The notes beneath the pieces are model-generated. The model did no database searches, was not told the origin of the DNA, and worked only from the letters and a program-made list of their open reading frames with translations. This document shows, in pieces, positions 19,105 through 55,165 of a DNA stretch of 64,000 bases. Numbering within the stretch: position 1 is the first letter of the stretch; every line of letters starts with the position of its first letter. The stretch is from an uncultured Alphaproteobacteria bacterium. Its GTDB lineage: Bacteria > Pseudomonadota > Alphaproteobacteria > RF32 > CAG-239. The stretch is from positions 2,422 to 66,421 of the forward strand of contig CAKQMH010000007.1 in assembly GCA_934254915.1 (NCBI GenBank), in the 5' to 3' direction. A program made the translations under genes and the position numbers.

Positions 19105-19116
19105 GGGTAGCAAGCG

Positions 19117-20139
19117 ATGAAACAAAACGTTATAGACGATTATAATATTATTTCGGGGCAGCAAAAAGCCGCTATTCTGATGTTGTCTTTGGATGAAGAG
19201 CGCTCTTCGCAATTATTTGCATTAATGGATGACGAAGAGATTAAGGAGCTTTCGGTTATTATGGCTTCTTTGGGCAAAATCAATTCTAATGTTGTCGAGC
19301 AACTGCTGCAGGAGTTTTCTGAAAAAATTTCTAACACCGGAACGCTTATCGGTACGTATGAAAGTACTGAACGTCTGTTGGCTAAGGCTTTGGATAAAGA
19401 TCGTGTTTCCATTATTATGGAAGAAATCCGCGGTCCGGCCGGACGTACAATGTGGGATAAACTTGGCAATGTTAACGAACATGTTTTGGCTAACTATCTT
19501 AAGAATGAATATCCGCAGACCATTGCCGTAATCCTTTCTAAAATCAAGGCGGAGCATGCGGCTAAAGTTTTGGCGCTTTTCCCTGAGAATTTTGCAATGG
19601 AAATTTTGATGCGTATGCTGCGTATGGATTCGGTGCAAAAAGAGGTTTTAGACGGCTTGGAAAAAACTTTGCGCAAAGAATTTATGAGCAACTTGTCAAA
19701 ATCGACACGCCGCGATTCGCATGAATTGATTGCCGATATTTTCAACTCCTTGGATCGCAATACCGAAACCCGCTTTATGGAAGCTTTGGAAGAACGTAAC
19801 CGTGAGAGTGCTGAACGCGTCAAGTCCTTGATGTTCACCTTTGAGGATTTGGTTCGTGTCGATTCACAAGGTATTCAGGTCTTGCTGCGTAATGTCGATA
19901 AAGATAAATTGGCAATTGCTCTGAAGGGTTCGTCTGAAACAATCAAAGATTTGTTCTTCAACAATATGTCTTCACGTGCCGGCAAAATCATCAAGGAAGA
20001 TATGGAAGCTATGGGGCCGGTTCGTTTGCGCGATGTTGAGGAAGCTCAACAATACATTGTTACGGCGACCAAAGATTTGGCTAACAGCGGTGAATTGGTT
20101 ATCAGTGAAGGTAAAGACAGCGATGAGCTGGTTTACTGA
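19117..20139 (+). CDS. fliG: Flagellar motor switch protein FliG
   Basis: 340 aa. KAAILMLSLDEE N-terminus; the C-terminal domain has the conserved charged torque helix region. Immediately follows fliF. Confidence 0.9.
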   Translation: MKQNVIDDYNIISGQQKAAILMLSLDEERSSQLFALMDDEEIKELSVIMASLGKINSNVVEQLLQEFSEKISNTGTLIGTYESTERLLAKALDKDRVSIIMEEIRGPAGRTMWDKLGNVNEHVLANYLKNEYPQTIAVILSKIKAEHAAKVLALFPENFAMEILMRMLRMDSVQKEVLDGLEKTLRKEFMSNLSKSTRRDSHELIADIFNSLDRNTETRFMEALEERNRESAERVKSLMFTFEDLVRVDSQGIQVLLRNVDKDKLAIALKGSSETIKDLFFNNMSSRAGKIIKEDMEAMGPVRLRDVEEAQQYIVTATKDLANSGELVISEGKDSDELVY

Positions 20140-20153
20140 TGGGGTGAGCAAGC

Positions 20154-20933
20154 GTGGCAGAGTTTCAGAAATATATGTTTGATAATTTTGTTGTTCCCAA
20201 TGACAATGAACCGGTCATTGATGAACCGCAGGTTATGACAACATCTGAAAATGAGGCTGCGCAAGATTTACCGTCATCGGAAAATACTGATACCATGCCG
20301 GAAGAAGTCGTTGCCGAAGCTACGGTTGAGCCGATGCCGCCGGCTGCACCTGAACCGGAAATAAAAGCCGAACCTACTGTCAGCTTTTCGCCTGAAGAAT
20401 TGGACGCAGAGGTTAAAAAAGCCGAAGAACGCGGTTATGAAAAAGGTTTTCAGGTTGCACAGAGCGAAAAAGAACAACGCCAATCATTATTATTAACCGA
20501 AATCAGCGGTAAGTTACAGGAATTATTGGATAATGCGGCGGCTGTGCAAACCAATTTGGAAGCAGAGCAGATGAGCTTAAGTGTCGAATTGGTGCGTAAA
20601 TTGTTACCGACATTGGAAAAAACGCAGGCTCAAGCCGAAGTCAAAAAGTTTTTGACCGATAACTTTGCTAATTTTCGCAAAGAGCCGGCGTTATCATTTA
20701 GTTTTAATCCCGAAGTGGTTGCCGCAATGCCTGAAATTATATCGAAACTGGCTTCACAAAATGATTTTGAGGGTAAAATTGCCATTCATAAAGATGCCAA
20801 TCTTGCTTTGACCGACTGTCGGGTTGAATGGCTTAATGGCGGAGTTGAACGCAATAATCATAAAATGCTTGAAAAAATGAGCGAATTATTTGATGATAAG
20901 ACCATGAATGGAAAAGAGAGGGAACATGGATAA
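20154..20933 (+). CDS. fliH: Flagellar assembly protein FliH/FlbE-like (GTG start)
   Basis: Acidic Pro-rich N-terminus, then AEERGYEKGFQVAQSE, which is FliH-like. It occupies the flbE slot of the Caulobacter fliF operon. Confidence 0.55.
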   Translation: MAEFQKYMFDNFVVPNDNEPVIDEPQVMTTSENEAAQDLPSSENTDTMPEEVVAEATVEPMPPAAPEPEIKAEPTVSFSPEELDAEVKKAEERGYEKGFQVAQSEKEQRQSLLLTEISGKLQELLDNAAAVQTNLEAEQMSLSVELVRKLLPTLEKTQAQAEVKKFLTDNFANFRKEPALSFSFNPEVVAAMPEIISKLASQNDFEGKIAIHKDANLALTDCRVEWLNGGVERNNHKMLEKMSELFDDKTMNGKEREHG

Positions 20934-21279
20934 AAATTTGGAATTAGACGAGTTAAACGAAACGGCATCCATGGATGATGAGCCGATTTTGCGCAAAAAT
21001 AATCCGACGGAAGATTTTGACATTCCAAGCTCCACCAGCGACTTGGAAGCTGTTTATAATATTCCGGTTAAGGTTTCGGCCATTTTGGGTAAAACGCAAA
21101 TGAAAGTCAGCCAGCTGATGAAGTTGAACAAAGGCGCGATTATTGAACTCGACCGCAAAGTCGGGGAGGCGATTGATATTTACGTTAACAATAATTTGGT
21201 TGCCCGCGGTGAAGTTGTCGTTGTTGATGACAAACTTGGTATTACCATGACTGAAATTGTCAAAACCGTAGCTAAATAG
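20926..21279 (+). CDS. fliN: Flagellar motor switch protein FliN (start at MDKNLE with a GAGAGGGA RBS; the longer ORF begins at 20908)
   Basis: C-terminal SpoA/FliN domain: VKVSAILGKTQMKVSQLMKLNKGAIIELDRKVGEAIDIYVNNNLVARGEVVVVDDKLGITMTEIV. Confidence 0.8.
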   Translation: MDKNLELDELNETASMDDEPILRKNNPTEDFDIPSSTSDLEAVYNIPVKVSAILGKTQMKVSQLMKLNKGAIIELDRKVGEAIDIYVNNNLVARGEVVVVDDKLGITMTEIVKTVAK

Positions 21280-21299
21280 TTGGATCGGCGGTAATAAAA

Positions 21300-22628
21300 A
21301 TGGAATTGTTGATTGTCGGAACTTTAGAAGGACAAATTGGTGCAGCCAGCAAAATTGCTATTGCGCAGGGCGGTCATGTGTCTTTAGCCGACAGTGTCGA
21401 GGCCGGACTTGAAATCTTGCGGTCGGGCAAAACCATTGAGTTGGTTATGATAGACGTTAAGCTTGATGTCTATAAGTTTATTTCCTCGTTGGAGCAGGAA
21501 CGCATTAATGTTCTGGTTGTAGCCTGCGGTGTGGCTAATGATCCGACTTTGGCGGTTAAAGCCATAAAAGCCGGCGCTAAGGAGTATATCCCTCTTCCTC
21601 CCGATGCCGAACTTATCGGAGCTGTTTTGGCGGCGGCCACGCGCGAAAATCACGCCCTGATTTACGGGGATAAAAAGACCGAAAATATTTTAAAAATGGC
21701 CAAGCAAATTGCCCCTTCGGAAGCCAGTGTGCTGTTGACCGGCTCTTCCGGAACCGGTAAAGAAATTTTTTCGCGCTTTATTCACGATAATTCCAAACGT
21801 GCCAATAAAAAGTTTGTGGCCGTAAACTGTGCGGCAATTCCCGAGACATTGTTGGAATCAGAGCTTTTCGGCTATGAAAAAGGCGCATTTACCGGCGCTG
21901 TCGCTCGTCGTATCGGCAAATTTGAGGAAGCCTCTGACGGAACATTGTTGCTGGATGAAATCTCCGAAATGGATATCGGTATTCAGGCCAAATTACTGCG
22001 TGCAATTCAGGAAAAAGAAATTGACCGTATCGGCGGTAAAGCTCCGATTAAAGTCAATACGCGGATTATTGCCACCTCCAACCGCAACTTGGATGAGGCT
22101 GTAAAAAACGGCACATTCCGCCAGGATTTGTATTATCGCTTGAACGTTATCGCAATTAATATTCCCGATTTGAAAGACCGTTCCGGCGACATTATCGTTT
22201 TGGCCAAGCATTTTATCAAAAAATATTCCGAACTCAATGACTTACCGATGAAAGATTTGTCTCCTGAGGCTGAGCAGATGCTGCTTAATTATCTGTGGCC
22301 GGGTAATGTTCGTGAGTTGGAAAATACGATTCATCGTGCGGTATTATTAAGTACCGGAGATGTTATTGGTCAGGATGCGATTATTTTGACCAGTCCCGAT
22401 GCTGTTATTAATTCTCAGGCCGCTGTGGCTGATAATAGCGGCAACAATAGTATGGTCGGGCAAACCGTTGCCGGAATGGAACGCAAGCTGATTATTGACA
22501 CCCTCAAACATACCATGGGTAACCGTACTACGGCAGCCAATATTTTAGGAATTTCAATCCGCACATTGCGTAACAAACTCAAACAATATCAGGAAGAGGG
22601 ATTTGATTTTCCCGCAGCTGAAGGATAA
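21300..22628 (+). CDS. flbD: Sigma-54-dependent flagellar transcriptional regulator (FlbD/FleR-like response regulator)
   Basis: Receiver-like N-terminus, an AAA+ sigma-54 activation domain with Walker A GSSGTGKE and GAFTGA, and a C-terminal HTH. Same position as flbD in the Caulobacter fliF operon. Confidence 0.8.
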   Translation: MELLIVGTLEGQIGAASKIAIAQGGHVSLADSVEAGLEILRSGKTIELVMIDVKLDVYKFISSLEQERINVLVVACGVANDPTLAVKAIKAGAKEYIPLPPDAELIGAVLAAATRENHALIYGDKKTENILKMAKQIAPSEASVLLTGSSGTGKEIFSRFIHDNSKRANKKFVAVNCAAIPETLLESELFGYEKGAFTGAVARRIGKFEEASDGTLLLDEISEMDIGIQAKLLRAIQEKEIDRIGGKAPIKVNTRIIATSNRNLDEAVKNGTFRQDLYYRLNVIAINIPDLKDRSGDIIVLAKHFIKKYSELNDLPMKDLSPEAEQMLLNYLWPGNVRELENTIHRAVLLSTGDVIGQDAIILTSPDAVINSQAAVADNSGNNSMVGQTVAGMERKLIIDTLKHTMGNRTTAANILGISIRTLRNKLKQYQEEGFDFPAAEG

Positions 22629-22639
22629 AATAATCGACA

Positions 22640-24754
22640 ATGGCAAAACAACCTCAAAATATGTTTGGTAGCAAAAGCTTTAAGGATATGCTCACGGGTG
22701 CAACCCGGCGCGGCGATATTTTCTTTGCCTTCGCCATAATTTTGATGCTGGTTATCCTGATTTTACCTTTACCGTCTTGGATTTTGGATGTTTTGTTGGC
22801 CTTTTCCATTACCATGTCGTGCATTGTGCTGATGATGTCTATTTTTATCGAAAAGCCGACCGAATTCAGTGCTTTTCCGCTGGTTTTGCTGATAACAACC
22901 TTATACCGCCTGTCCTTAAATCTGGCCTCTACGCGTCTGATTTTGGCCAAAGGTTATACCGGACCTGATGCCGCAGGTGAAGTTATTAAAGCTTTCGGCG
23001 GTTTTATCATGGGCAATAACTTTGTTATCGGTGTTATCGTTTTTGCGATTTTGGTATTGGTAAACTTTGTGGTTATTACCAAAGGTTCGGGACGTATTGC
23101 TGAAGTTGCCGCCCGTTTTGCTTTGGATGCGATGCCCGGTAAGCAAATGGCTATTGATGCTGACTTGTCTTCGGGCTTGATTAATGAAGATGAAGCGCGC
23201 AAACGCCGTGAGGATTTATCTAAAGAAAGCTCTTTTTACGGAGCTATGGATGGTGCTTCCAAGTTTGTCCGCGGAGATGCTATTGCCGGCTTGCTGATTG
23301 TGTTCATTAACATTGTCGCTGGTATTATTATCGGTATGGTGCAAAACCACTTAAGCTTCAGCGAGGCCAGCGAAACTTATATGCGTTTGACGGTCGGCGA
23401 TGGTTTGGTTTCGCAAGTTCCGGCACTGATTGTTTCGGTTGCCGCCGGTATTTTGGTGTCCAAGGCCGGTATGACCGATTCGACCGACAAAGTTTTGTTC
23501 GATCAGGTTGCCAACTATCCTAAAGCTTTGGGTATGAGTGCCTTTTTGGCCTTGGCTTTGGGAATGCTGCCCGGAACGCCGTTTGTACCATTCGTCATGT
23601 TGGCAACATTGACCGGTGCGACCGCGTATTATCTGGATAAACGCCAAAAAGAGCAGGCCGCTAAAGCCCAAGAAGTACTCGAGCAGGAGAAAAAACAAGG
23701 CAAACAGGCCAAAGCAGCTGATGAGCCGATTGCCAATGCTTTGCGGGTTGACCTGATTCGTCTGGAAATCGGTTATGGTCTGTTGCCGTTGATTAATGAA
23801 GAAACCAACCGTAAACTGACTGATCAGATTAAAGCCTTGCGCCGCGCATTGGCTTCCGAGCTTGGCTTTGTTATGCCCTCAATCCGTATTCAGGATAATA
23901 TGCAGCTGGAGGCTAACGAATATAATATTTACATCAAAGAAGTTCGGGCCGGCAAGGGGGAACTTCGCCCGACCAAATTATTGGTTATGGATCCGCGCGG
24001 CGAAGCGATTACTCTCCCCGGAGAAGCTACCTTTGAGCCGACTTTCGGGCTGAAAGCCATGTGGGTTGATCCTTCGTATCGTGAGGAAGCTATGTTCCGC
24101 GGCTATACGGTGGTCGATCCGGCTACGGTGGTTACAACCCATATTACCGAACTGGTCAAAGATAATATGCCCGAATTGTTGTCTTATGCCGAAACGCAAA
24201 AACTGCTTGATGAACTGGACAAAGAACATCAAAAACTTATCAAAGAGCTTATTCCGAGCAAAGTCAGCCTTGGTGCTTTGCAACGTATCTTGCAAAATCT
24301 GTTGCAGGAAAGAGTTTCAATTCGCGATTTGCCGACTATTTTGGAAGGCATTTCCGAGGCGGTTACCACTACGCGCAGCCTGATGATGATTACCGAGCAT
24401 GTTCGCGCTCGTTTGGCTCGCCAACTTTCCAATGCCTATGCCAATGAATTCGGAGTGATTTCTTTGGTTACCTTATCGCCGGAATGGGAACATGCTTTTG
24501 CCGAAGCTATTGTGGGCGAGGGTGATGAGCGTCAGTTGGCAATGGCTCCCAGCGCTTTACAAAGCTTTATTACCAAAGTCCGCAATACGATGGAAGAACT
24601 TGCCGCCAAAGGTGAAAGCGCCGTTCTTCTGACCAGTCCCGGCATTCGTCCGTTTGTTCGTTCTATCATTGAACGTTTCCGCCCGTTAACGGTGGTTATG
24701 TCGCAAAATGAAATTCATCCTAAGGCTAAAATCAAAACCGTCGGGCAGATTTGA
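22640..24754 (+). CDS. flhA: Flagellar biosynthesis protein FlhA (type III export gate)
   Basis: 704 aa, 8 TM N-terminal region with the FHIPEP signature (FALDAMPGKQMAIDADL) and a large cytoplasmic C-terminal domain. Confidence 0.95.
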   Translation: MAKQPQNMFGSKSFKDMLTGATRRGDIFFAFAIILMLVILILPLPSWILDVLLAFSITMSCIVLMMSIFIEKPTEFSAFPLVLLITTLYRLSLNLASTRLILAKGYTGPDAAGEVIKAFGGFIMGNNFVIGVIVFAILVLVNFVVITKGSGRIAEVAARFALDAMPGKQMAIDADLSSGLINEDEARKRREDLSKESSFYGAMDGASKFVRGDAIAGLLIVFINIVAGIIIGMVQNHLSFSEASETYMRLTVGDGLVSQVPALIVSVAAGILVSKAGMTDSTDKVLFDQVANYPKALGMSAFLALALGMLPGTPFVPFVMLATLTGATAYYLDKRQKEQAAKAQEVLEQEKKQGKQAKAADEPIANALRVDLIRLEIGYGLLPLINEETNRKLTDQIKALRRALASELGFVMPSIRIQDNMQLEANEYNIYIKEVRAGKGELRPTKLLVMDPRGEAITLPGEATFEPTFGLKAMWVDPSYREEAMFRGYTVVDPATVVTTHITELVKDNMPELLSYAETQKLLDELDKEHQKLIKELIPSKVSLGALQRILQNLLQERVSIRDLPTILEGISEAVTTTRSLMMITEHVRARLARQLSNAYANEFGVISLVTLSPEWEHAFAEAIVGEGDERQLAMAPSALQSFITKVRNTMEELAAKGESAVLLTSPGIRPFVRSIIERFRPLTVVMSQNEIHPKAKIKTVGQI

Positions 24755-24766
24755 GGATAAGCGCCG

Positions 24767-25720
24767 ATGAGAGTTAAAAATTTCATAGCGGCAAATATGA
24801 ACGAAGCCATGGCGCAAGTCCGAATGACGCTTGGTTCTGAGGCCGTAATCCTCTCTAATCAGATCCTGGACGGGCAGATTCATCTTACCGCCGCGGTTGA
24901 TGAACGTGATGACTTTGATTTCAATCCTGACGAGCGTCTTCGCGCCATAGATACCAAAATTTGGTTTGATGAACGCCATTTGCGCGAAAGTTTGGAATAT
25001 CACGGTGTTTTGGCATCCATCGCCGAAAAAATTTTGGCGCAGGCTCGAGATGTCGCTCGTTCACAACCGCAAGCCGATGAGCAAAAAGTTTTAAGTCAGG
25101 CTTTGGCTAAGGTATTTAAGTTTGATGGTCTGTTCGGTTCTGATTCGCAGGTAAAAGTTTTTATGGGGATTTCCGGCAGCGGTAAGTCCACCGCCATTGC
25201 CAAAATGGCCACTCAGGCTCGGTTGCAAAACATTAAAACCTTAATTGTCAGTACCGACAACATTCGCGCCGGCGCTAATAATCAGTTACAAGCATTTGCC
25301 AACATTTTGGAAGTCGATTTTGTCTTTCACAAACAGGCGGAAGAAGCGTTTAAATGTATTAATCAGGCTAAGCGCAATTATGGGCTTATCTTGGTTGATA
25401 CTGCCGGTATCAATCCTTATTATCAGGCAGAATTGGACAAGATTGCGCCGATTGTCGAAGCTTTAAAGGGAGATAAAATTTTAGTGCAGGATGCAGGACG
25501 CAACGTCTTTGAAGCGGTTGAAACGGCTGAATTGTTTAAGGATTTGGGCGCGGACTATTTATTACCGACCCGTTTGGATTTGACCCGACGCATCGGTGCT
25601 TTGATTTCTGCCGCCGGCTGTTGCAATCTTGCTTTTGCCGCCGCCGGTGTAAATTCGTCAATAGCTAAAGGATTAGCTCGTGTCGAAAGTTCATCATTAG
25701 CCAAACTTTTGTTAGCTTAA
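24767..25720 (+). CDS. flhF: Flagellar biosynthesis GTPase FlhF
   Basis: N-terminus MRVKNFIAANMNEAMAQVRMTLGSEAVIL is typical of FlhF. SRP-type GTPase P-loop GISGSGKST. Follows flhA. Confidence 0.8.
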   Translation: MRVKNFIAANMNEAMAQVRMTLGSEAVILSNQILDGQIHLTAAVDERDDFDFNPDERLRAIDTKIWFDERHLRESLEYHGVLASIAEKILAQARDVARSQPQADEQKVLSQALAKVFKFDGLFGSDSQVKVFMGISGSGKSTAIAKMATQARLQNIKTLIVSTDNIRAGANNQLQAFANILEVDFVFHKQAEEAFKCINQAKRNYGLILVDTAGINPYYQAELDKIAPIVEALKGDKILVQDAGRNVFEAVETAELFKDLGADYLLPTRLDLTRRIGALISAAGCCNLAFAAAGVNSSIAKGLARVESSSLAKLLLA

Positions 25721-25731
25721 AGGAAAGGAAA

Positions 25732-26538
25732 ATGGAAAATATACAAGAATTGACAATCGCTCCCGCCGGAACATCCGCCCGCAGTTTGCGTAAAGGGCGC
25801 AATATGTTGGCTATTGCCTCGGGCAAAGGCGGAGTTGGCAAAACCTGGTTTTCCATAACCTTGGCTCATGCTTTAAGCACGTTGCGGCAAAAAACTTTGC
25901 TGTTTGACGGCGATTTGGGTTTGGCCAATGTCGATATCCAGTTAGGTCTTATGGTGAAATACGATTTAGGCAGCGTCATTTCCGGCGCTATGAGCCTTAA
26001 TCAGGTGGTTCATCACTATGACAAAGGGCGGTTTGATGTTATTGCCGGACGTTCTGGCTCGGCCGGATTAGCCTCCATGCCGATAGGGCGGTTACAAATT
26101 TTGGGTGAGGATTTGAGCCTGCTGGCCGGTAATTACAATAAAGTCATATTGGATATGGGCGCCGGTGTTGAAAAGCCGGTACGCATACTTTCCGGTATGG
26201 CCGAAAAAATTATTGTTGTCTGCACGGACGAACCCACTTCTTTGACCGATGCCTACGCTTTTATCAAAATTATGACTATGCAATATCCGAAGAGTAATAT
26301 TAATATCGTTATTAATCAGGCTAATTCGGTGCGCGAGGGCCAACGTACGTATGATACTCTGCTCAAAGCCTGCAACAACTTCTTGAAAATAAATCCGCCT
26401 TTATTAGGTATAATCAGAAGAGATACGCGCGTTCGTGATTCGATTCGCAATCAAACTTCCATTATAAACCGCTATCCGACATCCGAGGCCGCCGAAGATG
26501 TTTTAGCCATTGCCAAGAGGTTAATCGCCAATGGATAA
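25732..26538 (+). CDS. flhG: Flagellar number regulator FlhG (MinD/ParA-family ATPase)
   Basis: Deviant Walker A: IASGKGGVGKTWFSITLA. About 268 aa and follows flhF. Confidence 0.8.
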   Translation: MENIQELTIAPAGTSARSLRKGRNMLAIASGKGGVGKTWFSITLAHALSTLRQKTLLFDGDLGLANVDIQLGLMVKYDLGSVISGAMSLNQVVHHYDKGRFDVIAGRSGSAGLASMPIGRLQILGEDLSLLAGNYNKVILDMGAGVEKPVRILSGMAEKIIVVCTDEPTSLTDAYAFIKIMTMQYPKSNINIVINQANSVREGQRTYDTLLKACNNFLKINPPLLGIIRRDTRVRDSIRNQTSIINRYPTSEAAEDVLAIAKRLIANG

Positions 26539-28387
26539 TGTAATTGCTTCAACCCTTAATCCCGCGATGACACCGCAGCTTGCCGATAAGATTGTTACCG
26601 GACAAATTGTGGAAATTCCCGAGGCGTTGAGCAATTTTAATATCGGCGATACTTTGCTGCTTAAAGTTCTGTTTGACAATAATGCTTTTAAGTTTAATCA
26701 GGATTTAAGTGTGCGTTTGCTGATTGACGGACAGGAAACCCCGCTTCATCTAAAGTTTGATATTCCTTTGAAGCTTGAGGCTGATGAGGCTCACCAAATT
26801 TTAGCTAAAGTGGTCGGACGTCCGACTGATTCTCGTATCAGTTTTTCGCTTATCAGTATTGATAATAAACGTCCTGACAGTTTTATCCTGCCGCCGCAAA
26901 CCTCAAAAAACACCCCATCGACGCCGGTTTTGGGCAATGAAAACTTAAAACCCGATGTCACTAATCAAATGGTTTCACCCAATGCGCCGATAATCAAAGA
27001 AGTCAACTCCGCTATCCAACAAGTTAGATTTGTGCCGCTGAAATTAGCGCCGGCCGTAACGGAAATTATGCAGGAATTTTCACTGCCGCCGGAGTTGCAA
27101 AATCGTATTTCTGCAGCGGTAAGCGATTTACGAATGAATGTTGAGCTGAAAGCTGTTTTGCCGACCCCGCAGGAAAACACCTCAATTTCGCAGTCCTTAG
27201 AGCAAGAAATTACCGCGCCATTGCGTCAACTGATAAGCAATATTGCGCTAGCACAGGACAAACCGCAGCAGCTGACCGCTTTAATCAACAATTTGGCTGC
27301 CGAAGTCAAAAATTTATCATTGCTGTCGCTGCCGGCTACGGCTCAGCTCAAAGGTGAAAACAACGTGCTGTTTTTTCAAACCCCGTTGGGTGAAGTGTTG
27401 CCGGAAACCTCGCTTAAATTTCCGCCGCAAACGCAGGTAATCTTACAGCTGAAAGAAGTCGAAACCGGTTCTGACACTCGTCCCGCAACAGTTAGCCAAC
27501 CGCCGGCGGCTAATTCGCAACCAGTATCGGAAAAATCGTTGTTAGGCAGTTTGTTGTCCAAATTGGTCGACGTCATCAAGCCACAGCCGGCTGAAGTTAA
27601 GCCTGAATTGAATGCTAAATCACTGCTTACTCCGTTGAAAGCCGAAACGTTACTTCCGACGGAAAAAAGTCTTCCGTTGCCGGAAACAGGTATGGTTATC
27701 AATACGCTTTCCTCTCGTATGCCCAACAGTTTATCGCCGCTTTTGGATATTTTAAAACCTTTGGCCGCTCAGCCGCAAGAAACACATGTCGCTACTCTTT
27801 TATTGGACAAGCTTCCGGCGCCGAATGATAAAATGTTGTCTAACCTGACTAATTATGTCAAAGCGGCTTCAACCCGCGATGTCAGTGCCTGGTTGGGTAA
27901 AGATTTGGTGCAGGAGCTTGATTCACTTGGCACTCAGGGTAAAGAGGTTATTGCCCGTGCAGCTGATTATGTAAGCCAAAATACGCGTGACGGCATCAGT
28001 TGGCGCACGGTCGAAATACCGCTTCTTGCCGGTTCGGAGCTTTCGCATATTCAATTGTCCATCAAAAAACCGCAGGACGAAGAAGAAAAAGATGTTCCGG
28101 CCGCTAAGCGCAAATCGGGTACACGGTTTTTGCTGGAAACCGAATTCACACGGTTGGGCAAATTTCAGTTCGATGGTTTTTCACTGCCCAAAGACCGGCG
28201 CTTTGATTTGGTTATTCGTACTACCCATCAGTTTTCGGAAGACTTTTGTTCGCAAATTATTCGGCTTTTCAAAACCTCTTTGCAGGAAGTTGATTATGTC
28301 GGTAACATAAATATCAATCTTAAGGAAAATTTTATTAAAATCGCTGAAACTGAAAATCATCAGTTGGATGACAGCATATATATTTAG
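26531..28387 (+). CDS. Hypothetical proline/glutamine/leucine-rich protein, 618 aa, possibly FliK-like
   Basis: Overlaps the flhG stop by 8 nt, on the same strand. No signal peptide. C-terminal block WRTVEIPLLAGSELSHIQLSIKK resembles the FliK Flg_hook block of the upstream FliK (INIQLKPEDLGHIEVKMQISK). Confidence 0.5.
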   Translation: MDNVIASTLNPAMTPQLADKIVTGQIVEIPEALSNFNIGDTLLLKVLFDNNAFKFNQDLSVRLLIDGQETPLHLKFDIPLKLEADEAHQILAKVVGRPTDSRISFSLISIDNKRPDSFILPPQTSKNTPSTPVLGNENLKPDVTNQMVSPNAPIIKEVNSAIQQVRFVPLKLAPAVTEIMQEFSLPPELQNRISAAVSDLRMNVELKAVLPTPQENTSISQSLEQEITAPLRQLISNIALAQDKPQQLTALINNLAAEVKNLSLLSLPATAQLKGENNVLFFQTPLGEVLPETSLKFPPQTQVILQLKEVETGSDTRPATVSQPPAANSQPVSEKSLLGSLLSKLVDVIKPQPAEVKPELNAKSLLTPLKAETLLPTEKSLPLPETGMVINTLSSRMPNSLSPLLDILKPLAAQPQETHVATLLLDKLPAPNDKMLSNLTNYVKAASTRDVSAWLGKDLVQELDSLGTQGKEVIARAADYVSQNTRDGISWRTVEIPLLAGSELSHIQLSIKKPQDEEEKDVPAAKRKSGTRFLLETEFTRLGKFQFDGFSLPKDRRFDLVIRTTHQFSEDFCSQIIRLFKTSLQEVDYVGNININLKENFIKIAETENHQLDDSIYI

Positions 28388-37010: not shown

Positions 37011-38213
37011 CTAGGTTTTCAGGTTAACTGCGGTTTGCAGCATCTCATTATTAACCGTAAAGGCATTGGCATTACTGGTATAAGCGCGCTGCGTAATAAT
37101 CATCGTACCAAACTCTTCGGCAATATCCACGGTTGACCGTTCCAAAGCTTGTGGCACAAGATAGTTGTCAGACACAAAATAGCTTTCGCCGACGTCATTG
37201 GTCGCCTCAAACAATGTTCCGTCTACCGCCAACAGGTTGTTGGGCGCGGTAAAACCGGTAATTGCCAGTTTGGCGATGTTATAAGTATTGCCGTTGGTGT
37301 AAGAGGCTTTCACAATTCCGCCCTCGTCAATGTAGCTCTTGATAAAGCTGCCGCTTGGCGCACCGTTTTGGTTGATAGTGGCAATACCTGTTCCGCCGTC
37401 ATATTGCGTCATGGTTGAAATATTTAAGGCCACATTGGTGGAAACCCCGTCATCCCATTGCACATCGACATTAAGGTTCTTGGGCGAAATCAGCCCGCCT
37501 TTGCTGTCAAAAACAACTTCGGTTTCGCTGCCGGTCGCTGTTCCACCCTCAACCGCAAACGACAAATTCCAGGTATTAACTTTGCCTTCGACTTTGGTAA
37601 AAATCATACTGAGCGAGTCACTCTCGTGGTTTTCGCTATATACCGGAATATTAAACAAGTTGCGATCAACATTAGCCGGAACATTGGCGGTAATACTGGC
37701 CTCCGTGGTTGGCTGCGCCGGAATTTTTTCGGGGTATTTGAGGATAATATTTTCCGCCGCCGCGCTGAACCCGCCGCCGTCTAAGGCCGTAAAGCCTTGA
37801 ACTTTCAACCCATTTTGCGAAATCAGATACGTAACCCCGTTTTCCGTGCGGTTTTCAAAATTACCGGCGCGGGAATAATAGGTGTTGTTGAAGTCGTCCT
37901 TGAGGGTAAAAAAAGCATTAGAATTGCCGGAAATCGCCACATCAAAACTATTGCCGGTCACATTCAAAATACCCTGATCGTCAATATTGGTGCGGTCATA
38001 ATAGCCCACACCCTGCACATCGACGCGGGAGGCGGAAATTCCTGCCGCATTATTCTTGACCGCCGGCGCTGAACCAAGCAAGGTGTAAAACATTGTCTGA
38101 TTGGTACGATAACCCACGGTGTTGACATTGGCGATGTTCGTACTTACCTGTCCGATAGCGTGCGCATAAGCTTCCATACCGGTGGTGGAGGGGGTAAACA
38201 TACTTAAAGCCAT
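37011..38213 (-). CDS. flgE: Flagellar hook protein FlgE paralog (canonical length, 400 aa)
   Basis: N-terminal IGQVSTNIANVNTVGYR and the DVAISGNSNAFFTLKDD...YYSRAGNF block match the FlgE N-domain. C-terminus ERSTVDIAEEFGTMIITQRAYTSNANAFTVNNEMLQTAVNLK matches the rod/hook C-terminus. Confidence 0.8.
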   Translation of the reverse strand: MALSMFTPSTTGMEAYAHAIGQVSTNIANVNTVGYRTNQTMFYTLLGSAPAVKNNAAGISASRVDVQGVGYYDRTNIDDQGILNVTGNSFDVAISGNSNAFFTLKDDFNNTYYSRAGNFENRTENGVTYLISQNGLKVQGFTALDGGGFSAAAENIILKYPEKIPAQPTTEASITANVPANVDRNLFNIPVYSENHESDSLSMIFTKVEGKVNTWNLSFAVEGGTATGSETEVVFDSKGGLISPKNLNVDVQWDDGVSTNVALNISTMTQYDGGTGIATINQNGAPSGSFIKSYIDEGGIVKASYTNGNTYNIAKLAITGFTAPNNLLAVDGTLFEATNDVGESYFVSDNYLVPQALERSTVDIAEEFGTMIITQRAYTSNANAFTVNNEMLQTAVNLKT

Positions 38214-38330: not shown

Positions 38331-40115
38331 TTAGTTTGGTTTGCATCCTTTCCAATAAGCATCATTGCAAGGACATATCTCGTATGTTTTACTGTTATCA
38401 CAACCCATTCTATTTATGTTTGACTCATATCCTAATTTAATGCAGAATTCTTTTGTATCCCCAAAGTAAGCGCAATCGCATTTTGCTAAGAATGTTTTGG
38501 CTTGGTTTCTGCTATCATCTGAGTCAGACCATTTATTTGTGGAAATTTGCTGGTAATCATGTTCGCAATTACCTGGTTCTTCTTTCTCACTCACTAAAGT
38601 ATCGTTACAAGCCGGATAAGAAGGATCTGAATTATTTTGATATGGTGTAAATATACTGTTTTCACATCCACCCCAGCGATACCAGCTATTATAGTTGTAG
38701 TCGGTTTCATCTGGTCTGCCGCATTTCTTGCAGTAGATAGCACCTTCTTGTGAAGCAGATACTCCTACTTTAGGAAAAACACTCTGAGGAGTACGGCAGG
38801 TATCTTGCGGGTTAAAGGTGTAACCGCTGCTGCAGGTTGGAGCTTCACAACTTGAAATATACGTTTTGCGATGTTCAATGCGGGTTGCTTTGGCGCATAC
38901 TCTATTGAGACACTCTTCATACGTATCATCATCCTCATTCTCGCTACACCTGTATTGATTGTATTCTCCATCAAGGGCATTATCATCAACGCTAGCTCTG
39001 CACTCTGTGACGCTTAGTTCATAGTCATCATAGACGCAGCTGGTGCATTCCGGATTGTTACTGTCGTGTTCGACTTTCATATATTTTTTACCATTACACC
39101 AAGACGATTTGTCACAAGTGCTGAAGCCCTCGCGGCAGACTTTATCCGCGTGATAATAAGTTTTTTCATTGCTGCCGCAGCCTTCGGTGCAGGATACAAC
39201 ATTGGTCGCGCCCGCCGGCACGCTTTCCAAATTGTAGTAGGTGCGGTCGCAGGCCGGCTTATTGCATACACATTTGTTGCATGGTTCGCCGCCGGAATAT
39301 CCGTCGGTTTCCAACGTCGGCGTGGTTGAGGTTTGGTCGCACGAGGTTACACCTGTGCTGTAACCCGTGGGGCATGATTTCTTAGCACAACCGCAGTTAC
39401 CGCTGTTGAGCCAACCTAGAGCCGTGTTGCATACACATTCGCCGCCTTGTTCGGTGAGGCCGGCAGCGGTGTCACATACACATTGCTTGGTGTAGGAGTT
39501 ATAAACATGGCAGCTACGGCAATTTATCGGCTTGGTACAGCTGGTGCAGCTTCCTTTACTTTGGTTGCCGTGGGTGCAAGAATAGCCGCTGTTGCATGAG
39601 CATTGGTAGTGGGTTCCGTTCTTATCGCTACAAGATTTACAGCTCAAATTTTCATCTGTCGGGCGGAAATTCAACGGAAACTTAATAGCCGAACAAGTGC
39701 AGTTGTATCTAGTTCCGTTTCTGTCGGTACATGCTTGGCAATTATAACCTTCATCAGTCGGCTGAGAATTTAGTGGATATTCTGAGGTCGAGCAAGCGCA
39801 GTATTCATACTTCCCATCACAGCTTTGTCCTGACGGAACTTTTCCCGCCGGGCAGGATGACACATAGTTCGTCGGGCAGGTACAGGACTTATAGCAGTAC
39901 AAGCCTTGTGTAACCATTATTTTAGTCCCTTTCTTTGGTGCGGGGCAATCGCTAAGCATGTTGTGATCGCTGCAGGTTGACTGCTTTGTATCAGTACCAA
40001 AGGAGCCAAGATCACCGCTGTAATTCGGCAGCCACGTCACACCGGCCCACGCTGCTCCGGATATCACTATCGCACCGACCAGTGCGACTATCCCTGTTTT
40101 TGAAAATTTAATCAT
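38331..40115 (-). CDS. Cysteine-rich secreted protein (594 aa; about 12% Cys), paralog of the upstream gene
   Basis: Strong SD GAGGTG with 4-nt spacing. Sec signal MIKFSKTGIVALVGAIVISGAAWA, followed by the VTWLPNYSG motif. Dense CxC/CxxC content and no Cys-free stretch longer than about 25 aa. Confidence 0.7.
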   Translation of the reverse strand: MIKFSKTGIVALVGAIVISGAAWAGVTWLPNYSGDLGSFGTDTKQSTCSDHNMLSDCPAPKKGTKIMVTQGLYCYKSCTCPTNYVSSCPAGKVPSGQSCDGKYEYCACSTSEYPLNSQPTDEGYNCQACTDRNGTRYNCTCSAIKFPLNFRPTDENLSCKSCSDKNGTHYQCSCNSGYSCTHGNQSKGSCTSCTKPINCRSCHVYNSYTKQCVCDTAAGLTEQGGECVCNTALGWLNSGNCGCAKKSCPTGYSTGVTSCDQTSTTPTLETDGYSGGEPCNKCVCNKPACDRTYYNLESVPAGATNVVSCTEGCGSNEKTYYHADKVCREGFSTCDKSSWCNGKKYMKVEHDSNNPECTSCVYDDYELSVTECRASVDDNALDGEYNQYRCSENEDDDTYEECLNRVCAKATRIEHRKTYISSCEAPTCSSGYTFNPQDTCRTPQSVFPKVGVSASQEGAIYCKKCGRPDETDYNYNSWYRWGGCENSIFTPYQNNSDPSYPACNDTLVSEKEEPGNCEHDYQQISTNKWSDSDDSRNQAKTFLAKCDCAYFGDTKEFCIKLGYESNINRMGCDNSKTYEICPCNDAYWKGCKPN

Positions 40116-40141: not shown

Positions 40142-42573
40142 TTAGTTGTTGTCTAATTTCCGTCCCAAATACTCTATTGGCATATTATAAACATGATGTG
40201 GTAAAGTCCTGTAACGCGGTGAGCCAGTTGAAATTTCGCAATAACCTGCTCCTTCATCAATAGCTCCGTATGAGTCATCATAGTCGGTAATATTTTGCGC
40301 ACCGAAAACGCAACTAGCCACACGATTGTTGGTTAGATCTACGCCTTGAAGAGAACCGCCCACATTGAGAATAAATTTGGTAATCTCACCGTTTATGTAA
40401 GGAACCGGTTCATAAAAGTCATTCTCATATGCCTGTTTGTCACAGTCGTCCATCCCTTCATTGCAGGTGCCTGCTTCTTCACAATAGCTGACCGAAAAGT
40501 CACTATTTATAAGTACGTTAACATTTTTTTGAATATCAAGGCTTACATATCGGTTACCAATATAAACATTTCCAGCTATAATAAGATTATTATTGGTATA
40601 GGTATTGCCGGTTTTAGGCGAAATTATAGCATTTACTGAGCCGATTTCTACAACATCATTGTTAACGTCAGTCATAGTTGAAGCTGAGTGTTTTAGTTTT
40701 ACTGAACCCTTGATATTCATAGTATCGATCGCTCTCAGCGGTACCGTGCCATAATAATTATGGTCGCCTAATTCTAGAAAAGAACCTTCTTCTGTTTCAA
40801 TGTTGTCAATGTGTCCACTCGGGTTATTAATAACCAAGTTCGAGTTTTTAGACAGATATATATTGGCAGCGTCAAAAGCCACTTCTTCATTCGGAATAAC
40901 GACCTTTGTCTGAGTAGTAGTCACTCTTAAGTTTTTTATGTCGACAGATGTAACGCCAAGAAAATCACCGGTGTGTGTAGCATTAATTGATAATTCATCA
41001 ATGCTAAATCCTCTAATATTCGTAGTGATTCTAGCGCTTGAACCATCAATAAATAATTGACTCCAATTTAAAGTATTAACACCTGATGCTTTACAAACAC
41101 CATTTGATTCTTCAACAAATTTGTCCTCGGTATATATTTCTATCGGATAGGTCAAATCAATAGACTTAGAGATGTTATCTGTTGCCATAATAATCATTGT
41201 TCTACCTTCATCAATTGCATCTCTCATCTCTTGACCATCGGACACATACACTGCAGCTGGATATTTAGCTTCTAAGAACGCCTGACAGCTGGGGTAGACG
41301 CATTTACCGTTGACCAAAGTCGTACCGGGCCGGCAGTAGATACAAGTGTCATTAACCAATGTTGTGTTGGGATAACAACTTTTTATTTTGTAATAAGTCG
41401 TGTTGTCGCCACAGCCTTTGACACAAGTTTCATACGTTGCGTTCATCGGCTTTTTGGTTAGTGTATAGCCGGTGCAACTTTGGGGCGAGCATACACAGCG
41501 TCCGCATTTTTGTTCGCCGGAGTATCCGCTCTCGAGGTAAGAGTAATCATCGGCACATTCGGTCACGCCCGCGGTATAACCGGCCGGACAAGCCGCCGCT
41601 TTACAGCTGGTGATATTGCCGGCTGAGTCAGTGGTTTTGGTGTAGCCGGTCTTGCAACCGTCAATCTTATAATTAGGCGTGCCGGTTGAACTCATTCGGC
41701 AGGTGCTGCAACTGCTTGCGCCGGTCGGGCAGGCCGCGTTGCAGTATTTGTTTATGTCACAACTGCATAAATAACAGGACATACCATTGACGGTTACAGA
41801 GTTACAGGTTTGTCCCAAGGCTGTTCTTTCGGATATATCTTCGGGATTAACATAGCCGCTGGGGCAAGATGTCGCCTGACATTTGCCATCCACCAACTCA
41901 TAGTTGGCATTGCAGCCTGTTACTTTATATTTATTATCGCATTTTTCACAGGTGCTGTTGGCCGGACACGAAGACAGGCTGTAATCAGACGGGCAGGTAC
42001 AGGTGGTAAAATATCCTTTTATGGTCGTCGCCGTTACCTTGTCGCCAAAACCGGGAGCATAAATCGTGTCTGATAAACGGGAGCTGCTTTGAGTCGCAGC
42101 CGCTTTGGTTCCGGTATTGCGTTGAGCCGCAGCTGTTTTGGTTCCGGTATTGATTTTAGACGTAGCCGGTTTGAGGCCGTTGGTGGTGGCAACTGAGTCT
42201 AAAGTCGAACTATCGGAAAAAACGCCGTTGCTGGCGAGGGCGTCACAGGATTCCCCTCCCAACACTTTGGGGGATTCGCAGTTGCTGGAGCTGTATTGGT
42301 AATAACTTCGATCGCAGGAGCAGGATTTGTAGCAAGTCTTATTGCCGACCGGAACGGAGGTTGTTGGTTTCTTATGCTCTGGGCAAGATGAAATCAAGCC
42401 GGCTTCTTCGCAGGTCGTGGTGACTTCACTTAAGCCGCCATCGCTAACGCGGTTTTTATCCATATTGCTGCCCAAATATTCCGGCAGCCAATAAATTTTG
42501 GCAAAAGAACTTGAAACCATAATCACTGAACTAATCAGGACCAAAGTCCACAACCACAACCGCTTAGACATAA
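40142..42573 (-). CDS. Cysteine-rich secreted protein with a Cys-poor beta-helix-like C-terminal half (about 809 aa from the MSKRLW start; the longer ORF runs to 42607)
   Basis: Sec signal MSKRLWLWTLVLISSVIMVSSSFA, then KIYWLPEYLG. N-terminal about 440 aa are Cys-rich, with modules shared with the 594-aa protein (for example CPAGYTAGVTEC...SGYSGEQKCGRCVC vs CPTGYSTGVTSC...DGYSGGEPCNKCVC). The C-terminal about 370 aa are Asn/Ile/Val-rich repeats. Confidence 0.7.
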
Positions 42574-42710
42574 TACACCCCGCTGATTTTAAGGCGATTG
42601 CTGCCAATCACCCAAATTTCACCTATATATAGTTTAGCTTATTTTAGCCACACTAGCAATTAAAAATACGTTAAATCAGCTTAATAAAATAAAAATTTAA
42701 TATATTTGTA

Positions 42711-49475: not shown

Positions 49476-49503
49476 TTAAGCCTCCTGCGGGAGGCTTTTT
49501 TAA
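49476..49503 (+). terminator. Rho-independent terminator after mlaC
   Basis: AAGCCTCC / GGAGGCTT stem with a TGCG loop, followed by T6. Confidence 0.75.
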
Positions 49504-49799
49504 TGCCAGACTGATAATTAGTCTAGGTAAGCTGGAAAAAACTCAAATTGATAATATATTATAATTGTTCACGATGATGGTACATCGAAATTTTATTTCT
49601 TTTGCCATTATGAGTGTTCACCAGATTCTCCTGCACCTATTGTTGTGGCAAAAGATATAATATTTTTTGTTCATCAAAGTTTCAGTGAGGTCGGAAAGGC
49701 GAAAAGTATATGGCTTTTCGCCTTTTTTATGGTTTGGGTTGTATTTTTATCCAATTATTAAATATTGTTTGCTAAAATTCATTAAAATTGACAAAAAAG

Positions 49800-49827
49800 T
49801 TGAATTTTCGAAAATTTATGCTAGAAT
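49800..49827 (+). promoter_or_regulatory. Sigma-70 promoter (-35 TTGAAT 49800-49805, 16-nt spacer, -10 TAGAAT 49822-49827 with upstream TGc)
   Basis: Hexamers read directly. Followed by a GGAGG RBS at 49852-49856 and an ATG at 49862. Confidence 0.5.
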
Positions 49828-49861
49828 AAATCTCATAGTAAAGAATATACCGGAGGCAGCC

Positions 49862-51817
49862 ATGGCAGAATCAAAATTGTTTACGTTCACCTTTAATATG
49901 GACGAGGAACATAAGTCGCTAATTTTGCAAAAGTATAATCAAGAAACTTTCTCCGCAGAGGATGAAAAGCTTTTGGCCTCAATCCGCAATTCTTCTGCAC
50001 CCAATAAAGAACAAGCTGAAAAAGATTTACTTTTCGCGCATGCTTTTGTCCGTAGTGTGGCTGAAGACGGCAAATATTCGCAACAAGATGGTGAAAATCC
50101 GGCCAATCAAAATAATGTTGAGCTGAAACAAGATCGTCATGGAAACTTGCGCTTGCTTTGCATGATGCGTAATCTGGAAGGTACGGGCTTGAATTTTACG
50201 ATTGAGGACGGCAAAAGTATCGTCTTGGCTCAAAATGGCGAAATGAGCCGTGAAAAACTCATGGCTTTGTTCAACTTTTTAGACACTCACTATATCAGCG
50301 ATGTCAAGCTTCCGGATAATCTCCGTGATTTGACTTTAGCGCCGACCGCCGATGACAACAGCCCGAATGTCGGGACTTATTGGGACAAATTGCAGCAAGA
50401 ATCTGAAAGTTTTGCTGAACAAAACGAAATGAGCGGACAGGTCAAACTCGGTGCTGGTAAGTCCGAGAATATAGAGCCGGATATATCACCATCCGAGAAT
50501 ATTGATCCTGATATGTCACCATTGGCTAATAGTGGAGGAGCTTTTTATAAAGATGATAACAAGCCGCTTAACCTCAGTGCCAAAGTAATGCGCGATAAGG
50601 TTGAGGCTCGTCTGGGGATTATGGGCTACAACAACGGTGTTATCAAAACCAAATCCCTATGGTTTAATAATGGTTATATTGTCAGTGCCTATAAAGACGA
50701 TGATGCCTATAAGAACGATGGTAAAAACGAAAAAGGCAAAATTAAACACACCAAAGATTTTTCGATTAAAGTCCAAATCAAAAAAGGTCGTCCTACCGTC
50801 AGCTGGTATATCCCGCAAGGCGGTAAAATTGAAACCAAACATGCTCAAGCGATGTTGGATGCCCTAAAAGCTACCGGCGCTAAATATTTTACTCTTCCTT
50901 CAGCGGTTAAGGTCAGTGGCGGAGCGCAAAATTGTTTTTGGGAGGGCTGCGGCAAAACCTTAATGGTTCCGCGGTGCAAATGTGCCGATTGTCCGGAAGG
51001 AGTTGAGCTTGGTCCGGATAATGTTCAAACTATGTTCAATGTTATTGAAAAAGATAACAATAAAGATTCGGATTCCGTTTTGGAATTTAAGGCACGGTTG
51101 TTAGATGAATTAGAATATCAGGAAGCTTACAAACGTTCTAAAAACAAAAATTATAAAACCAATTCGGTTTTGGCTACTCAAATGGAACAAATGCGTGGAA
51201 CATTGGTCTATAAAAAACTGAATGACGGCTACCTTAATAATTTAAGCAGTAACATTATGAAGATGGCCAATAAAGGGCTGAGCAGCAAAACCAAAAATGA
51301 AGGTTGGGATTTCATTGAAGTTCAGGCCGCCAACCGAGCAATGGTATCAATAATCGAAAAGTTAAATGAAAAAGACGATAACGGCAATTTCAAATACCGC
51401 TATATTGGTTCGCCGGAGCAAGATAAAGCTTTGGATAAGATTTTTGCCAAGATGATGGAAGAAGAAAAGAAAAATATTGCAGAGGAATTTCAGTTGGGAC
51501 TGTCTGAAGGCAAACGCGAAAAAGACATAAAGAATGAAATTCGCGGCACAACCAAAGGTCTGATTGAAACGACACATGATAGTATTGAAACTGATTACGG
51601 CATCAAATTGAATATGTCATCTAAAGGTGTTAATGTTTCAAGTAATGTTGATATTAAGAAATACTATCCTGATACTAAAGTCAAAAAAGATGGCAAGGGA
51701 CATCTTGAATACGACTTCAGCGGTTGCAGCTATAAGAGAACAACCTCGCGCAGCCATACCGGTGAAGTTCAACAGCTTGGCGGCAACGTCAATCGGATTA
51801 CAAGTCGCGAACGTTGA
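49862..51817 (+). CDS. Hypothetical hydrophilic protein, 651 aa (start at MAESKLF; the upstream part of the long ORF 49667-49861 is promoter sequence)
   Basis: GGAGG 6 nt upstream of the ATG. No signal peptide or TM. Lys/Asp/Asn/Glu-rich. Contains an internal 10-aa tandem repeat and a Cys cluster CFWEGCGKTLMVPRCKCADCPEG. Confidence 0.6.
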   Translation: MAESKLFTFTFNMDEEHKSLILQKYNQETFSAEDEKLLASIRNSSAPNKEQAEKDLLFAHAFVRSVAEDGKYSQQDGENPANQNNVELKQDRHGNLRLLCMMRNLEGTGLNFTIEDGKSIVLAQNGEMSREKLMALFNFLDTHYISDVKLPDNLRDLTLAPTADDNSPNVGTYWDKLQQESESFAEQNEMSGQVKLGAGKSENIEPDISPSENIDPDMSPLANSGGAFYKDDNKPLNLSAKVMRDKVEARLGIMGYNNGVIKTKSLWFNNGYIVSAYKDDDAYKNDGKNEKGKIKHTKDFSIKVQIKKGRPTVSWYIPQGGKIETKHAQAMLDALKATGAKYFTLPSAVKVSGGAQNCFWEGCGKTLMVPRCKCADCPEGVELGPDNVQTMFNVIEKDNNKDSDSVLEFKARLLDELEYQEAYKRSKNKNYKTNSVLATQMEQMRGTLVYKKLNDGYLNNLSSNIMKMANKGLSSKTKNEGWDFIEVQAANRAMVSIIEKLNEKDDNGNFKYRYIGSPEQDKALDKIFAKMMEEEKKNIAEEFQLGLSEGKREKDIKNEIRGTTKGLIETTHDSIETDYGIKLNMSSKGVNVSSNVDIKKYYPDTKVKKDGKGHLEYDFSGCSYKRTTSRSHTGEVQQLGGNVNRITSRER

Positions 51818-51837: not shown

Positions 51838-51870
51838 TATCGCCATTCGTTATCGGATGGCGATTTTTTT
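51838..51870 (+). terminator. Rho-independent terminator after the 651-aa gene
   Basis: ATCGCCAT / ATGGCGAT stem, followed by T8. Confidence 0.6.
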
Positions 51871-54807: not shown

Positions 54808-55056
54808 TTATTCCGCCACACATTTGTGGTAATAGCTGCAGCCTTCGGCTTCGCAATCAACCATTTTTTCACCGGCCGGACAAATCGTGGTCGTCAGGTC
54901 ATATCCGACACAGGCTTCCGAACAAGTCGTTTCCAAAGCTGCCCCGCTTCCCACAATCGGGAGCGAAGATGTATATTCGGTAATCGATTGTACGCGGGCA
55001 TCGGCGGTAGCAGCTATGCCCATAGCTAATGCAAAGCAAAGAATTTTAATTTTCAT
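54808..55056 (-). CDS. Small secreted cysteine-rich protein (82 aa from MKIKIL; the longer ORF runs to 55089)
   Basis: SD GAGGTGG 4 nt upstream of the ATG at 55056. Signal MKIKILCFALAMGIAATADA. The mature part has 7 Cys in about 60 aa and contains TCSEAC...CPAGEK, matching the N-terminal module of the two large Cys-rich proteins. Confidence 0.5.
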   Translation of the reverse strand: MKIKILCFALAMGIAATADARVQSITEYTSSLPIVGSGAALETTCSEACVGYDLTTTICPAGEKMVDCEAEGCSYYHKCVAE

Positions 55057-55165
55057 TGTCCACCTCATTTGGCTAAAACTACATTTCATTGTAATTTGTA
55101 AAAGTTAATTTATTGCAAATAAGCATAATTTATATTAAATTAGCCGCGACAAAGGAAAGAGAACT

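Follow-up and report, generated by a model that had tools for sequence, protein, structure and literature searches.

What is the function of the 651-amino-acid (651-aa) protein encoded on the forward strand at positions 49862-51817 of a 64,000-nucleotide (nt) stretch of contig CAKQMH010000007.1, from an uncultured Alphaproteobacteria bacterium? Hereafter X is our shorthand for this gene and its protein, the window is the whole 64-kb stretch, and L002-L014 are the homologous loci with which it was compared. A sequence-only reading had singled X out as a charged protein with no recognisable domain and had proposed it as a secreted effector. We found that X represents a new family, one that attaches to no described family or fold with the tools used, and that X belongs, as a single copy inherited vertically, to the core genes of a clade of uncultured Alphaproteobacteria that have flagella and make lipopolysaccharide. 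As to function, we favour, with a probability of about 35%, a non-enzymatic intracellular adaptor or scaffold whose basic tail would dock on an acidic partner or on nucleic acid.

The novelty of the family rests on searches of several kinds. Scanned exhaustively with phmmer, 1.84 billion cluster representatives yielded relatives of X in 59 clusters (49 with E <1e-10), mostly of 600-840 aa and none named or annotated; word-index profile homology searches returned nothing further beyond four proteins. Neither X nor 50 of its relatives matched Pfam, NCBIfam, PHROGs or PADLOC, the best scores of X being 11.8 bits in Pfam (cut-off 23.4 bits) and 11.6 bits in NCBIfam (cut-off 86 bits). With Pfam and NCBIfam blank for X and no housekeeping family matched, the absence of a recognisable domain stands. 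No plasmid or phage homologue was found by tblastn, and profiles of the full-length protein and of its central domain found no sequence relative in the PDB (best E 0.1-0.9). The homologous loci in reference genomes came in five of five cases from metagenome-assembled genomes labelled uncultured Alphaproteobacteria or uncultured proteobacterium, and a search of the literature on RF32/Alphaproteobacteria genomes found nothing on X.

We then turned to the protein itself. Its composition is rich in charged and polar residues (Lys 10.9%, Glu 8.0%, Asn 8.1%, Asp 6.9%; net charge -3), and no transmembrane segment or signal peptide was found in it, the maximum 19-residue hydropathy being 0.59; composition and hydropathy thus agree with the hydrophilic character first ascribed to X. 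AlphaFold2, run on a 50-sequence alignment, gave a model with a mean predicted local distance difference test score (pLDDT) of 81.9 and a predicted template-modelling score (pTM) of 0.66, in which there are three folded modules. The parts of X are as follows.

49862-51817 (+): coding sequence of X, 651 aa, stop codon included, with an ATG start; proteins about 99% identical occur on independent contigs
49862-50416 (+): acidic N-terminal module, residues 1-185; 19 Lys and Arg against 31 Asp and Glu; 21% mean identity to relatives
50417-50548 (+): disordered acidic linker, residues 186-229; pLDDT <50; 13% identity to relatives
50549-51061 (+): central alpha/beta domain, residues 230-400, the best-conserved part of X; 31% mean identity
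50933-50992 (+): species-specific Cys cluster in the central domain (C358, C363, C372, C374, C377); five Cys in 20 residues
51062-51616 (+): C-terminal helical domain, residues 401-585, with five long helices and the conserved motifs YKTNS and WDFIExQAAxRA
51725-51814 (+): disordered Arg-rich C-terminal tail, residues 622-651; pLDDT <50, with the charge counts given below

The model thus predicts a soluble protein in which a disordered acidic linker connects an acidic alpha/beta module at the N-terminus to the conserved alpha/beta domain in the centre; a helical bundle and the disordered Arg-rich tail follow. The N-terminal module is modelled as a conserved strand (MAxxxLFxF), three helices, a four-strand meander (GTGLNFTIEDGKSIVLA) and a helix, with the strand joining the meander. 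The central domain carries the motifs DGxxDKxGxxxHTKxF, PPxxxxYxPxGK, LxAxKxxGxxYFxxP and GAFxEAxGKTLMVP; its mean identity to relatives compares with 21-23% in the other modules, and when modelled alone it reached a pLDDT of 91 and a pTM of 0.86. We considered whether the N-terminal and central modules are an internal duplication and dropped the idea, the hhalign comparison not being significant (E = 0.38).

A confident model did not lead to a known fold. AlphaFold had been named by the sequence-only reading as a way to check X, and Foldseek found no match with E <0.02, whether the full model was compared with PDB and BFVD or the central domain with PDB. Against BFVD, X matched an 85-aa Acinetobacter phage protein whose function is not known (probability 0.99, E = 0.096). 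The top five PDB matches of the central domain were all of UBC/RWD type (Listerin three times, an E2 enzyme and Atg10). Secondary structure assigned to the domain model by DSSP comprises helices at 9-22, 94-106, 123-135 and 154-166 and strands at 30-35, 40-46, 67-76 and 79-85, which matches the UBC/RWD/UEV-like order of a helix, a four-strand antiparallel meander or sheet, and C-terminal helices. The central-domain element PP...Y-x-P-x-G, which follows strands 3/4, resembles the PPKV...YHPN region of E2 proteins. These matches are, however, not significant (E 0.068-0.18, template-modelling (TM) score <=0.30, root-mean-square deviation 12-16 A). Unlike active E2 enzymes, X has no conserved catalytic Cys and no HPN motif, and it has no Pfam UQ_con or RWD match; homology to E2 is not supported, the hhalign probability against UbcH5B being 0.1%. 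Profile matches in the PDB to Stu2, an annexin, a formyltransferase and RepB' were treated as noise. In the last of these, 48 residues of the central profile (the helix LxAxKxxGxxYF and the next helix) align to residues 22-69 of the RepB' primase of RSF1010 (PDB 3h25) at the noise level of E = 0.88, and 3h25 is absent among the Foldseek matches listed.

Conservation within the family gives a hint of what kind of protein X may be. Near-invariant positions are Q132, Y277, D286, G292, K298, P311, Y316, K336, G339, P370, W482 and A490, and the residues that stay constant are mostly of the turn or core type, namely glycines, prolines and turn residues, along with a small number of lysines and tyrosines and a single aspartate that sits in a hairpin turn. 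No Cys, His or Ser is conserved across the family. The sequence-only reading had seen no catalytic motif, and the family-conserved positions likewise form no recognisable catalytic set; we therefore infer that X binds partners and does not catalyse. That reading had also stressed an internal repeat and a compact Cys cluster, both of which are present, but neither is conserved in relatives or defines the family. The repeat, 2 x 30 nt at 50462-50522 encoding SENIEPDISP/SENIDPDMSP, lies in the disordered, non-conserved linker. At the five cluster columns (358, 363, 372, 374 and 377) relatives mostly have Ala, Ser, Leu, Arg or Asn: 41 of 50 carry Ala at 358, 24 of 50 carry Leu at 372, and 2 of 50 carry Cys at 374. 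For position 377, Cys is absent from the commoner residue classes listed among relatives, and C374/C377 are nearly unique to this sequence. These non-conserved columns effectively refute a zinc- or metal-binding Cys cluster as a property of the family.

The C-terminus of X, by comparison, is conserved in character, not in alignment. The last 30 residues are net positive in 51 of 51 full-length family members. Arg accounts for 13.7% of the family tail against 4.5% of the whole protein, a threefold rise, and Lys for 6.9% against 10.1%. An Arg stands among the last four residues in 46 of 51 members, compared with 7 of 49 other proteins of the window (Fisher p = 4e-15), and 30 of the 51 members terminate in Arg, usually preceded by Gly or Ser. 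Many tails have PxPxR and then ...RGGxR, RPR-like endings recur, and one sub-clade ends in W-[KR]-[KR]. The X of the window ends in ...YKRTTSRSH...NRITSRER (net +4, with 5 Arg in the final 30 residues), so that the Arg pattern is kept and the prolines are missing. The search for an effector-type C-terminal signal, which the sequence-only reading had put forward as a check, was thus positive at the level of the family: the tail is disordered, net positive and Arg-rich. A disordered Arg-rich C-terminal tail is an accepted translocation signal of Agrobacterium VirB/D4 effectors (PMC3937733, PMC8525350, PMC10025392). Like the tails of the VirB/D4 substrates VirF, VirE2, VirE3, VirD2 and VirD5 and of the Bartonella Bep proteins, the tail of X is extreme C-terminal, disordered and net positive, with Arg preferred over Lys (PMC3937733, PMC10025392); an alphaproteobacterial host and the lack of an N-terminal signal are also common to both. 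Unlike those substrates, X has no BID or known effector domain and is a vertically inherited single-copy core gene, and more than half of its family ends in ...[G/S]R, which is not described for those signals.

We next compared the rate at which X evolves with that of its neighbours. Between the window and related loci, identity is 95-96% for GAPDH, 86-91% for PGK, 84% for MlaC and 96% for AccC, and 25-38% for X. In pairwise comparisons the identity of X tracks that of PGK (45% at 93%, 39% at 91%, and 26-31% at 83-88%). The copies are therefore orthologues that descend vertically and evolve at about ten times the rate of PGK, not shuffled paralogues or transfers. A hidden Markov model of the family found one copy of X per locus, in the window and in all loci, and no paralogues. 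The 13 variants of X found within the species share at least 99% identity, a sign of purifying selection rather than of a diversifying antigen; the idea that X is hypervariable within the species is rejected on the same ground. Of all genes in the window, X has the codon usage nearest to the pooled usage, so that it is a native gene. Its GC content is low (0.406 against 0.454 +/- 0.024), but recent horizontal transfer was discounted given this codon usage and the tracking of PGK.

X is a real gene with its own transcription unit. The 651-aa reading frame was verified from the ATG at 49862 to the stop at 51817. Since every homologue begins with MA(D/E)... at this position, the ATG is the true start, and a longer TTG-started open reading frame (ORF) from 49667 is an artefact. 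The elements around the gene are listed here.

49478-49497 (+): terminator hairpin of mlaC, upstream of X; 8-bp stem with 5 GC pairs, then a T-run
49693-49727 (+): second terminator-like hairpin, within the 390-bp mlaC-X spacer; 15-bp stem, then a T-run
49789-49799 (+): conserved TGACAAAAAAG box adjoining the -35 hexamer of X; a GACAAAAA-type box lies upstream of homologues
49800-49827 (+): sigma-70-type promoter of X, identified from sequence and conserved across homologous loci; TTGAAT, 16-nt spacer, TG-n-TAGAAT (extended -10)
49852-49856 (+): ribosome-binding site GGAGG of X, identified from sequence, 5 nt ahead of the ATG
51839-51864 (+): intrinsic terminator of X; 11-bp stem, then T7

The promoter, the GGAGG site and terminator-like hairpins on both sides of the gene had all been reported by the sequence-only reading, and each was found as described. 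The hexamers are TTGAAT at 49800-49805 and TAGAAT at 49822-49827, the latter preceded by TG. Consensus matching alone does not exceed chance, as 12 promoter-like sites were found where 6.9 +/- 3.0 were expected. The promoter gains its credibility from conservation: loci whose X proteins share no more than 25-40% identity have kept the same block ahead of the gene. Homologues of X in L002, L003-5, L006, L008, L010, L012 and L013 are preceded by a GACAAAAA-type box. In the window and in all of these loci but L013, a GACAAAAA(A) box is followed by a TTG-type -35 and a TGnTAnnAT-type -10 element at an equal distance to the ATG; in L013 the box is there and the arrangement is shifted. The exact 14-mer of the box occurs once in the window. 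Elsewhere in about 300 kb of sequence, the composite motif of box and promoter had one looser match, ahead of a different gene in L003-5. The TGACAAAAAAG box is a candidate UP element or operator. Terminators also lie downstream of X homologues in the loci inspected; conservation of promoter and box, together with terminators after X, makes X a dedicated, separately regulated unit. On the upstream side, the hairpin at 49693-49727 is predicted to insulate X from upstream transcription, and it could mark where a small RNA ends, or be a relic. The spacer at 49500-49727 has, besides this strong hairpin, a promoter-like site at 49533; it could be a small RNA, or the relic of an ORF of about 145 aa that sits just upstream of X in L002 and L012.

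Gene order around X gives no further handle on its role. In the window, X is preceded by genes for a DegT-type aminotransferase, MlaA and MlaC and followed by those for LpxA, LpxI, LpxB and ComEC, in line with its first placement between the mla genes and lpxA. The arrangements compared were the following.

This window: mlaC, X, lpxA
L002: pgk, a 148-aa ORF, X, then mlaC on the opposite strand
L003-5: glgP, then X
L006 and L007: X between a flgE-like gene and flgE-flgD-fliK
L008 and L010: gap on the opposite strand, then X
L012: X, then glgP on the opposite strand
L013 and L014: gap-pgk-X, then glgP on the opposite strand

Across these loci, X has no neighbour that always shares its orientation, and there is therefore no operon from which its function could be borrowed. 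Small ORFs lie just upstream of X in L002 (2661-3107, 148 aa) and L012 (1683-2114, 143 aa); they are 32% identical to each other (E = 5e-14), have the motif GVxADAKGRIN in common and have no Pfam match. Being present only in L002 and L012, and in neither the window nor the other loci, such an ORF was rejected as an obligatory partner of X.

Whether the window encodes any secretion machinery bears directly on the effector proposal. The statement that no secretion system is encoded there was wrong: positions 12274-26538 hold fliK, flgD, flgE, fliF, fliG, a sigma-54 activator, flhA, flhF and flhG, which include the flagellar type III export gate. Type IV and type I secretion genes were sought in about 75 kb (the 64-kb window and 10 kb past its end) and in the flanks of about ten homologous loci, and none was found; the 75 kb are only a few per cent of the genome and make a weak test for type IV genes. 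With the C-terminal signal found as one supporting feature and the decisive one, a type IV or type I secretion system, not found in this sequence, the proposal that X is an effector is neither shown nor refuted.

We favour the intracellular adaptor or scaffold because X behaves as a core gene, is inherited vertically, has native codon usage, is under purifying selection within the species and has no type IV or type I genes in the sequence inspected; the lack of any plasmid, phage or defence-system link also supports it. Under this proposal, X would use its folded modules to hold one or several partners that co-evolve rapidly with it and its basic tail to dock on an acidic partner, either nucleic acid or a groove in a protein, and it would be expressed from its dedicated sigma-70 promoter under control acting through the conserved GACAAAAA box. 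The analysis shows the gene, the conservation of its promoter, its modular architecture, the tail motif, the rate of change and the vertical descent; the non-catalytic binding, the intracellular action and the role of the tail are each what we infer. Several points weigh against the adaptor. A rate about ten times that of the neighbours is unusual for a cytoplasmic protein and more in keeping with proteins exposed to a host, to a phage or to the environment. The codon bias of X is unlike that of strongly biased genes such as pgk and does not indicate very high expression, so that an abundant scaffold is unsupported. Finally, a disordered Arg-rich C-terminus is the recognised export signal of alphaproteobacterial VirB/D4 substrates. 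If X were a type IV secretion effector, it would be made in the cytoplasm, and a coupling protein would read this tail and deliver X to its target cell, eukaryotic or bacterial; there, a fast-evolving target would be bound by the folded modules. We consider this a live possibility, if somewhat unlikely. The tail is net positive and Arg-specific across the family in a Lys-rich protein, with recurrent PxPxR, RPR-like and ...RGGxR endings; the hosts are Alphaproteobacteria and X has no Sec signal; divergence between species is extreme, its rate being like that of effectors; the homologous ORF of about 145 aa upstream of X in two loci could be a chaperone; and a second orphan of the window (7220-8947), with a tail of +11, lies beside a secreted Sel1-repeat protein. 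Set against this, no VirB, VirD4 or other type IV gene was found in the few per cent of the genome inspected or in the homologue flanks, and X is single-copy, vertical, native in codon usage and 99% conserved within the species. The tail in the window also has no PxPxR element, neither the window nor most loci have the small upstream ORF, a preference for Arg as final residue is not described for VirB/D4 signals, and the repeat and Cys cluster on which the first account leaned are not family features. The fuller proposal that X is a chromosomally fixed translocated protein, present clade-wide in uncultured gut Alphaproteobacteria, with a previously unseen three-module fold, export by the Arg tail and co-evolution with a target in a host or competitor, strikes us as rather unlikely.

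Fast evolution could also be explained without export if X were a component of a conflict system, running an arms race against phages or mobile elements. Bacterial conflict systems include proteins with E2-like domains, and the UBC/RWD type of all five top PDB matches of the central domain would suit such a role, as would the shifting position of X between relatives and the very fast divergence between species with the fold kept. Yet those matches are not significant (E >=0.068, TM score <=0.30), PADLOC and PHROGs gave no match, no homologue turned up on plasmids or in phages, and X is orthologous clade-wide, not patchy, and stands alone with no conserved partner genes beside it; we find the idea quite doubtful. 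An association with the flagellum, either as cargo of the flagellar type III apparatus or as an assembly factor, is suggested by the flagellar cluster in the window, by L006 and L007, where the X homologue lies between or beside flgE-type genes and flgD-fliK, and by the likewise fast evolution of FliK (43-45% identity). FliK indeed resembles X in being lineage-typical and fast-evolving, with disordered parts, and in being adjacent to X in two loci, but FliK is a substrate of flagellar export and bears a recognisable Flg_hook domain, whereas X lacks both this domain and a flagellar promoter. The promoter of X is sigma-70-like with an extended -10, not of the sigma-28 or sigma-54 type; no axial-protein terminal domains or Pfam flagellar domain were found in X; its conserved N-terminus is modelled as ordered, unlike a disordered export signal; and most loci have gap-pgk, glgP or mla neighbours. 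A flagellar role is accordingly very unlikely. That X is a metal- or redox-dependent protein acting through its compact Cys cluster would fit the five Cys within 20 residues (C358-C377) of this sequence, but is scarcely credible for a cluster that relatives do not conserve. Least credible of all is a spurious or decaying ORF that is not a functional gene. It could appeal to L010, where the X homologue is split by a frameshift into ORFs at 7064-7693 (209 aa) and 7695-9206 (503 aa), either a pseudogene or an assembly error; it is contradicted by intact full-length homologues in about 59 clusters, by the confident AlphaFold model obtained from the family alignment, by the conserved promoter and ribosome-binding site and by the 13 within-species variants with 99% identity.

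If the family proves to be as it appears, X combines features that make it worth following: it has no described relatives in sequence or fold, it is a core gene in a probably gut-dwelling uncultured clade, and it evolves at about ten times the rate of its neighbours, yet keeps its fold, promoter and Arg motif. It offers an entry point to how these uncultured bacteria interact with their surroundings, through an exported effector or, in the adaptor reading that we prefer, through a fast-evolving internal scaffold. For structural biology it would be a target with a confidently predicted new fold. If X were translocated clade-wide, it would be the first effector family described for this lineage, and the orphan at 7220-8947 and the adjacent Sel1-repeat protein might share its repertoire. 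Orphan families are common in uncultured lineages, and X has so far given no sign of an unusual mechanism.

Other features of the window touch on the same themes. The gene content of the flagellar cluster suggests that the organism is probably motile. Its FliK (12274-14217) is second only to X among the fastest-evolving proteins in the comparisons with L006 and L007, the adjoining FlgD and FlgE being 75-78% identical. The cluster also has a 259-aa ORF without a Pfam match that may be fliH, and a second flgE-like gene lies at 37011-38213, beside pgk. A Pro/Ser/Leu-rich ORF of 618 aa without a Pfam match (26531-28387, +) overlaps the end of flhG and is probably part of the flagellar operon.

Outside this cluster, the 575-aa orphan at 7220-8947 (+) has no Pfam match and no signal peptide, and its last 30 residues carry the net +11 mentioned above; the Sel1-repeat protein at 8948-10027 (+), which has a signal peptide, follows it immediately. 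The two are a candidate second effector-style pair. Three Cys-rich proteins with signal peptides and without a Pfam match are encoded at 38331-40115 (-), 40142-42607 (-) and 54808-55089 (-). They have the N-terminal motifs YWLPEY / TWLPNY ... C..CP....K...CYKSC[ST]C in common and look like a lineage-specific secreted or surface family. Finally, an RNase P RNA of class A (287 bits) occupies 1886-2281 (+) and ends 2 nt ahead of the listed TTG start of lpxC at 2284.

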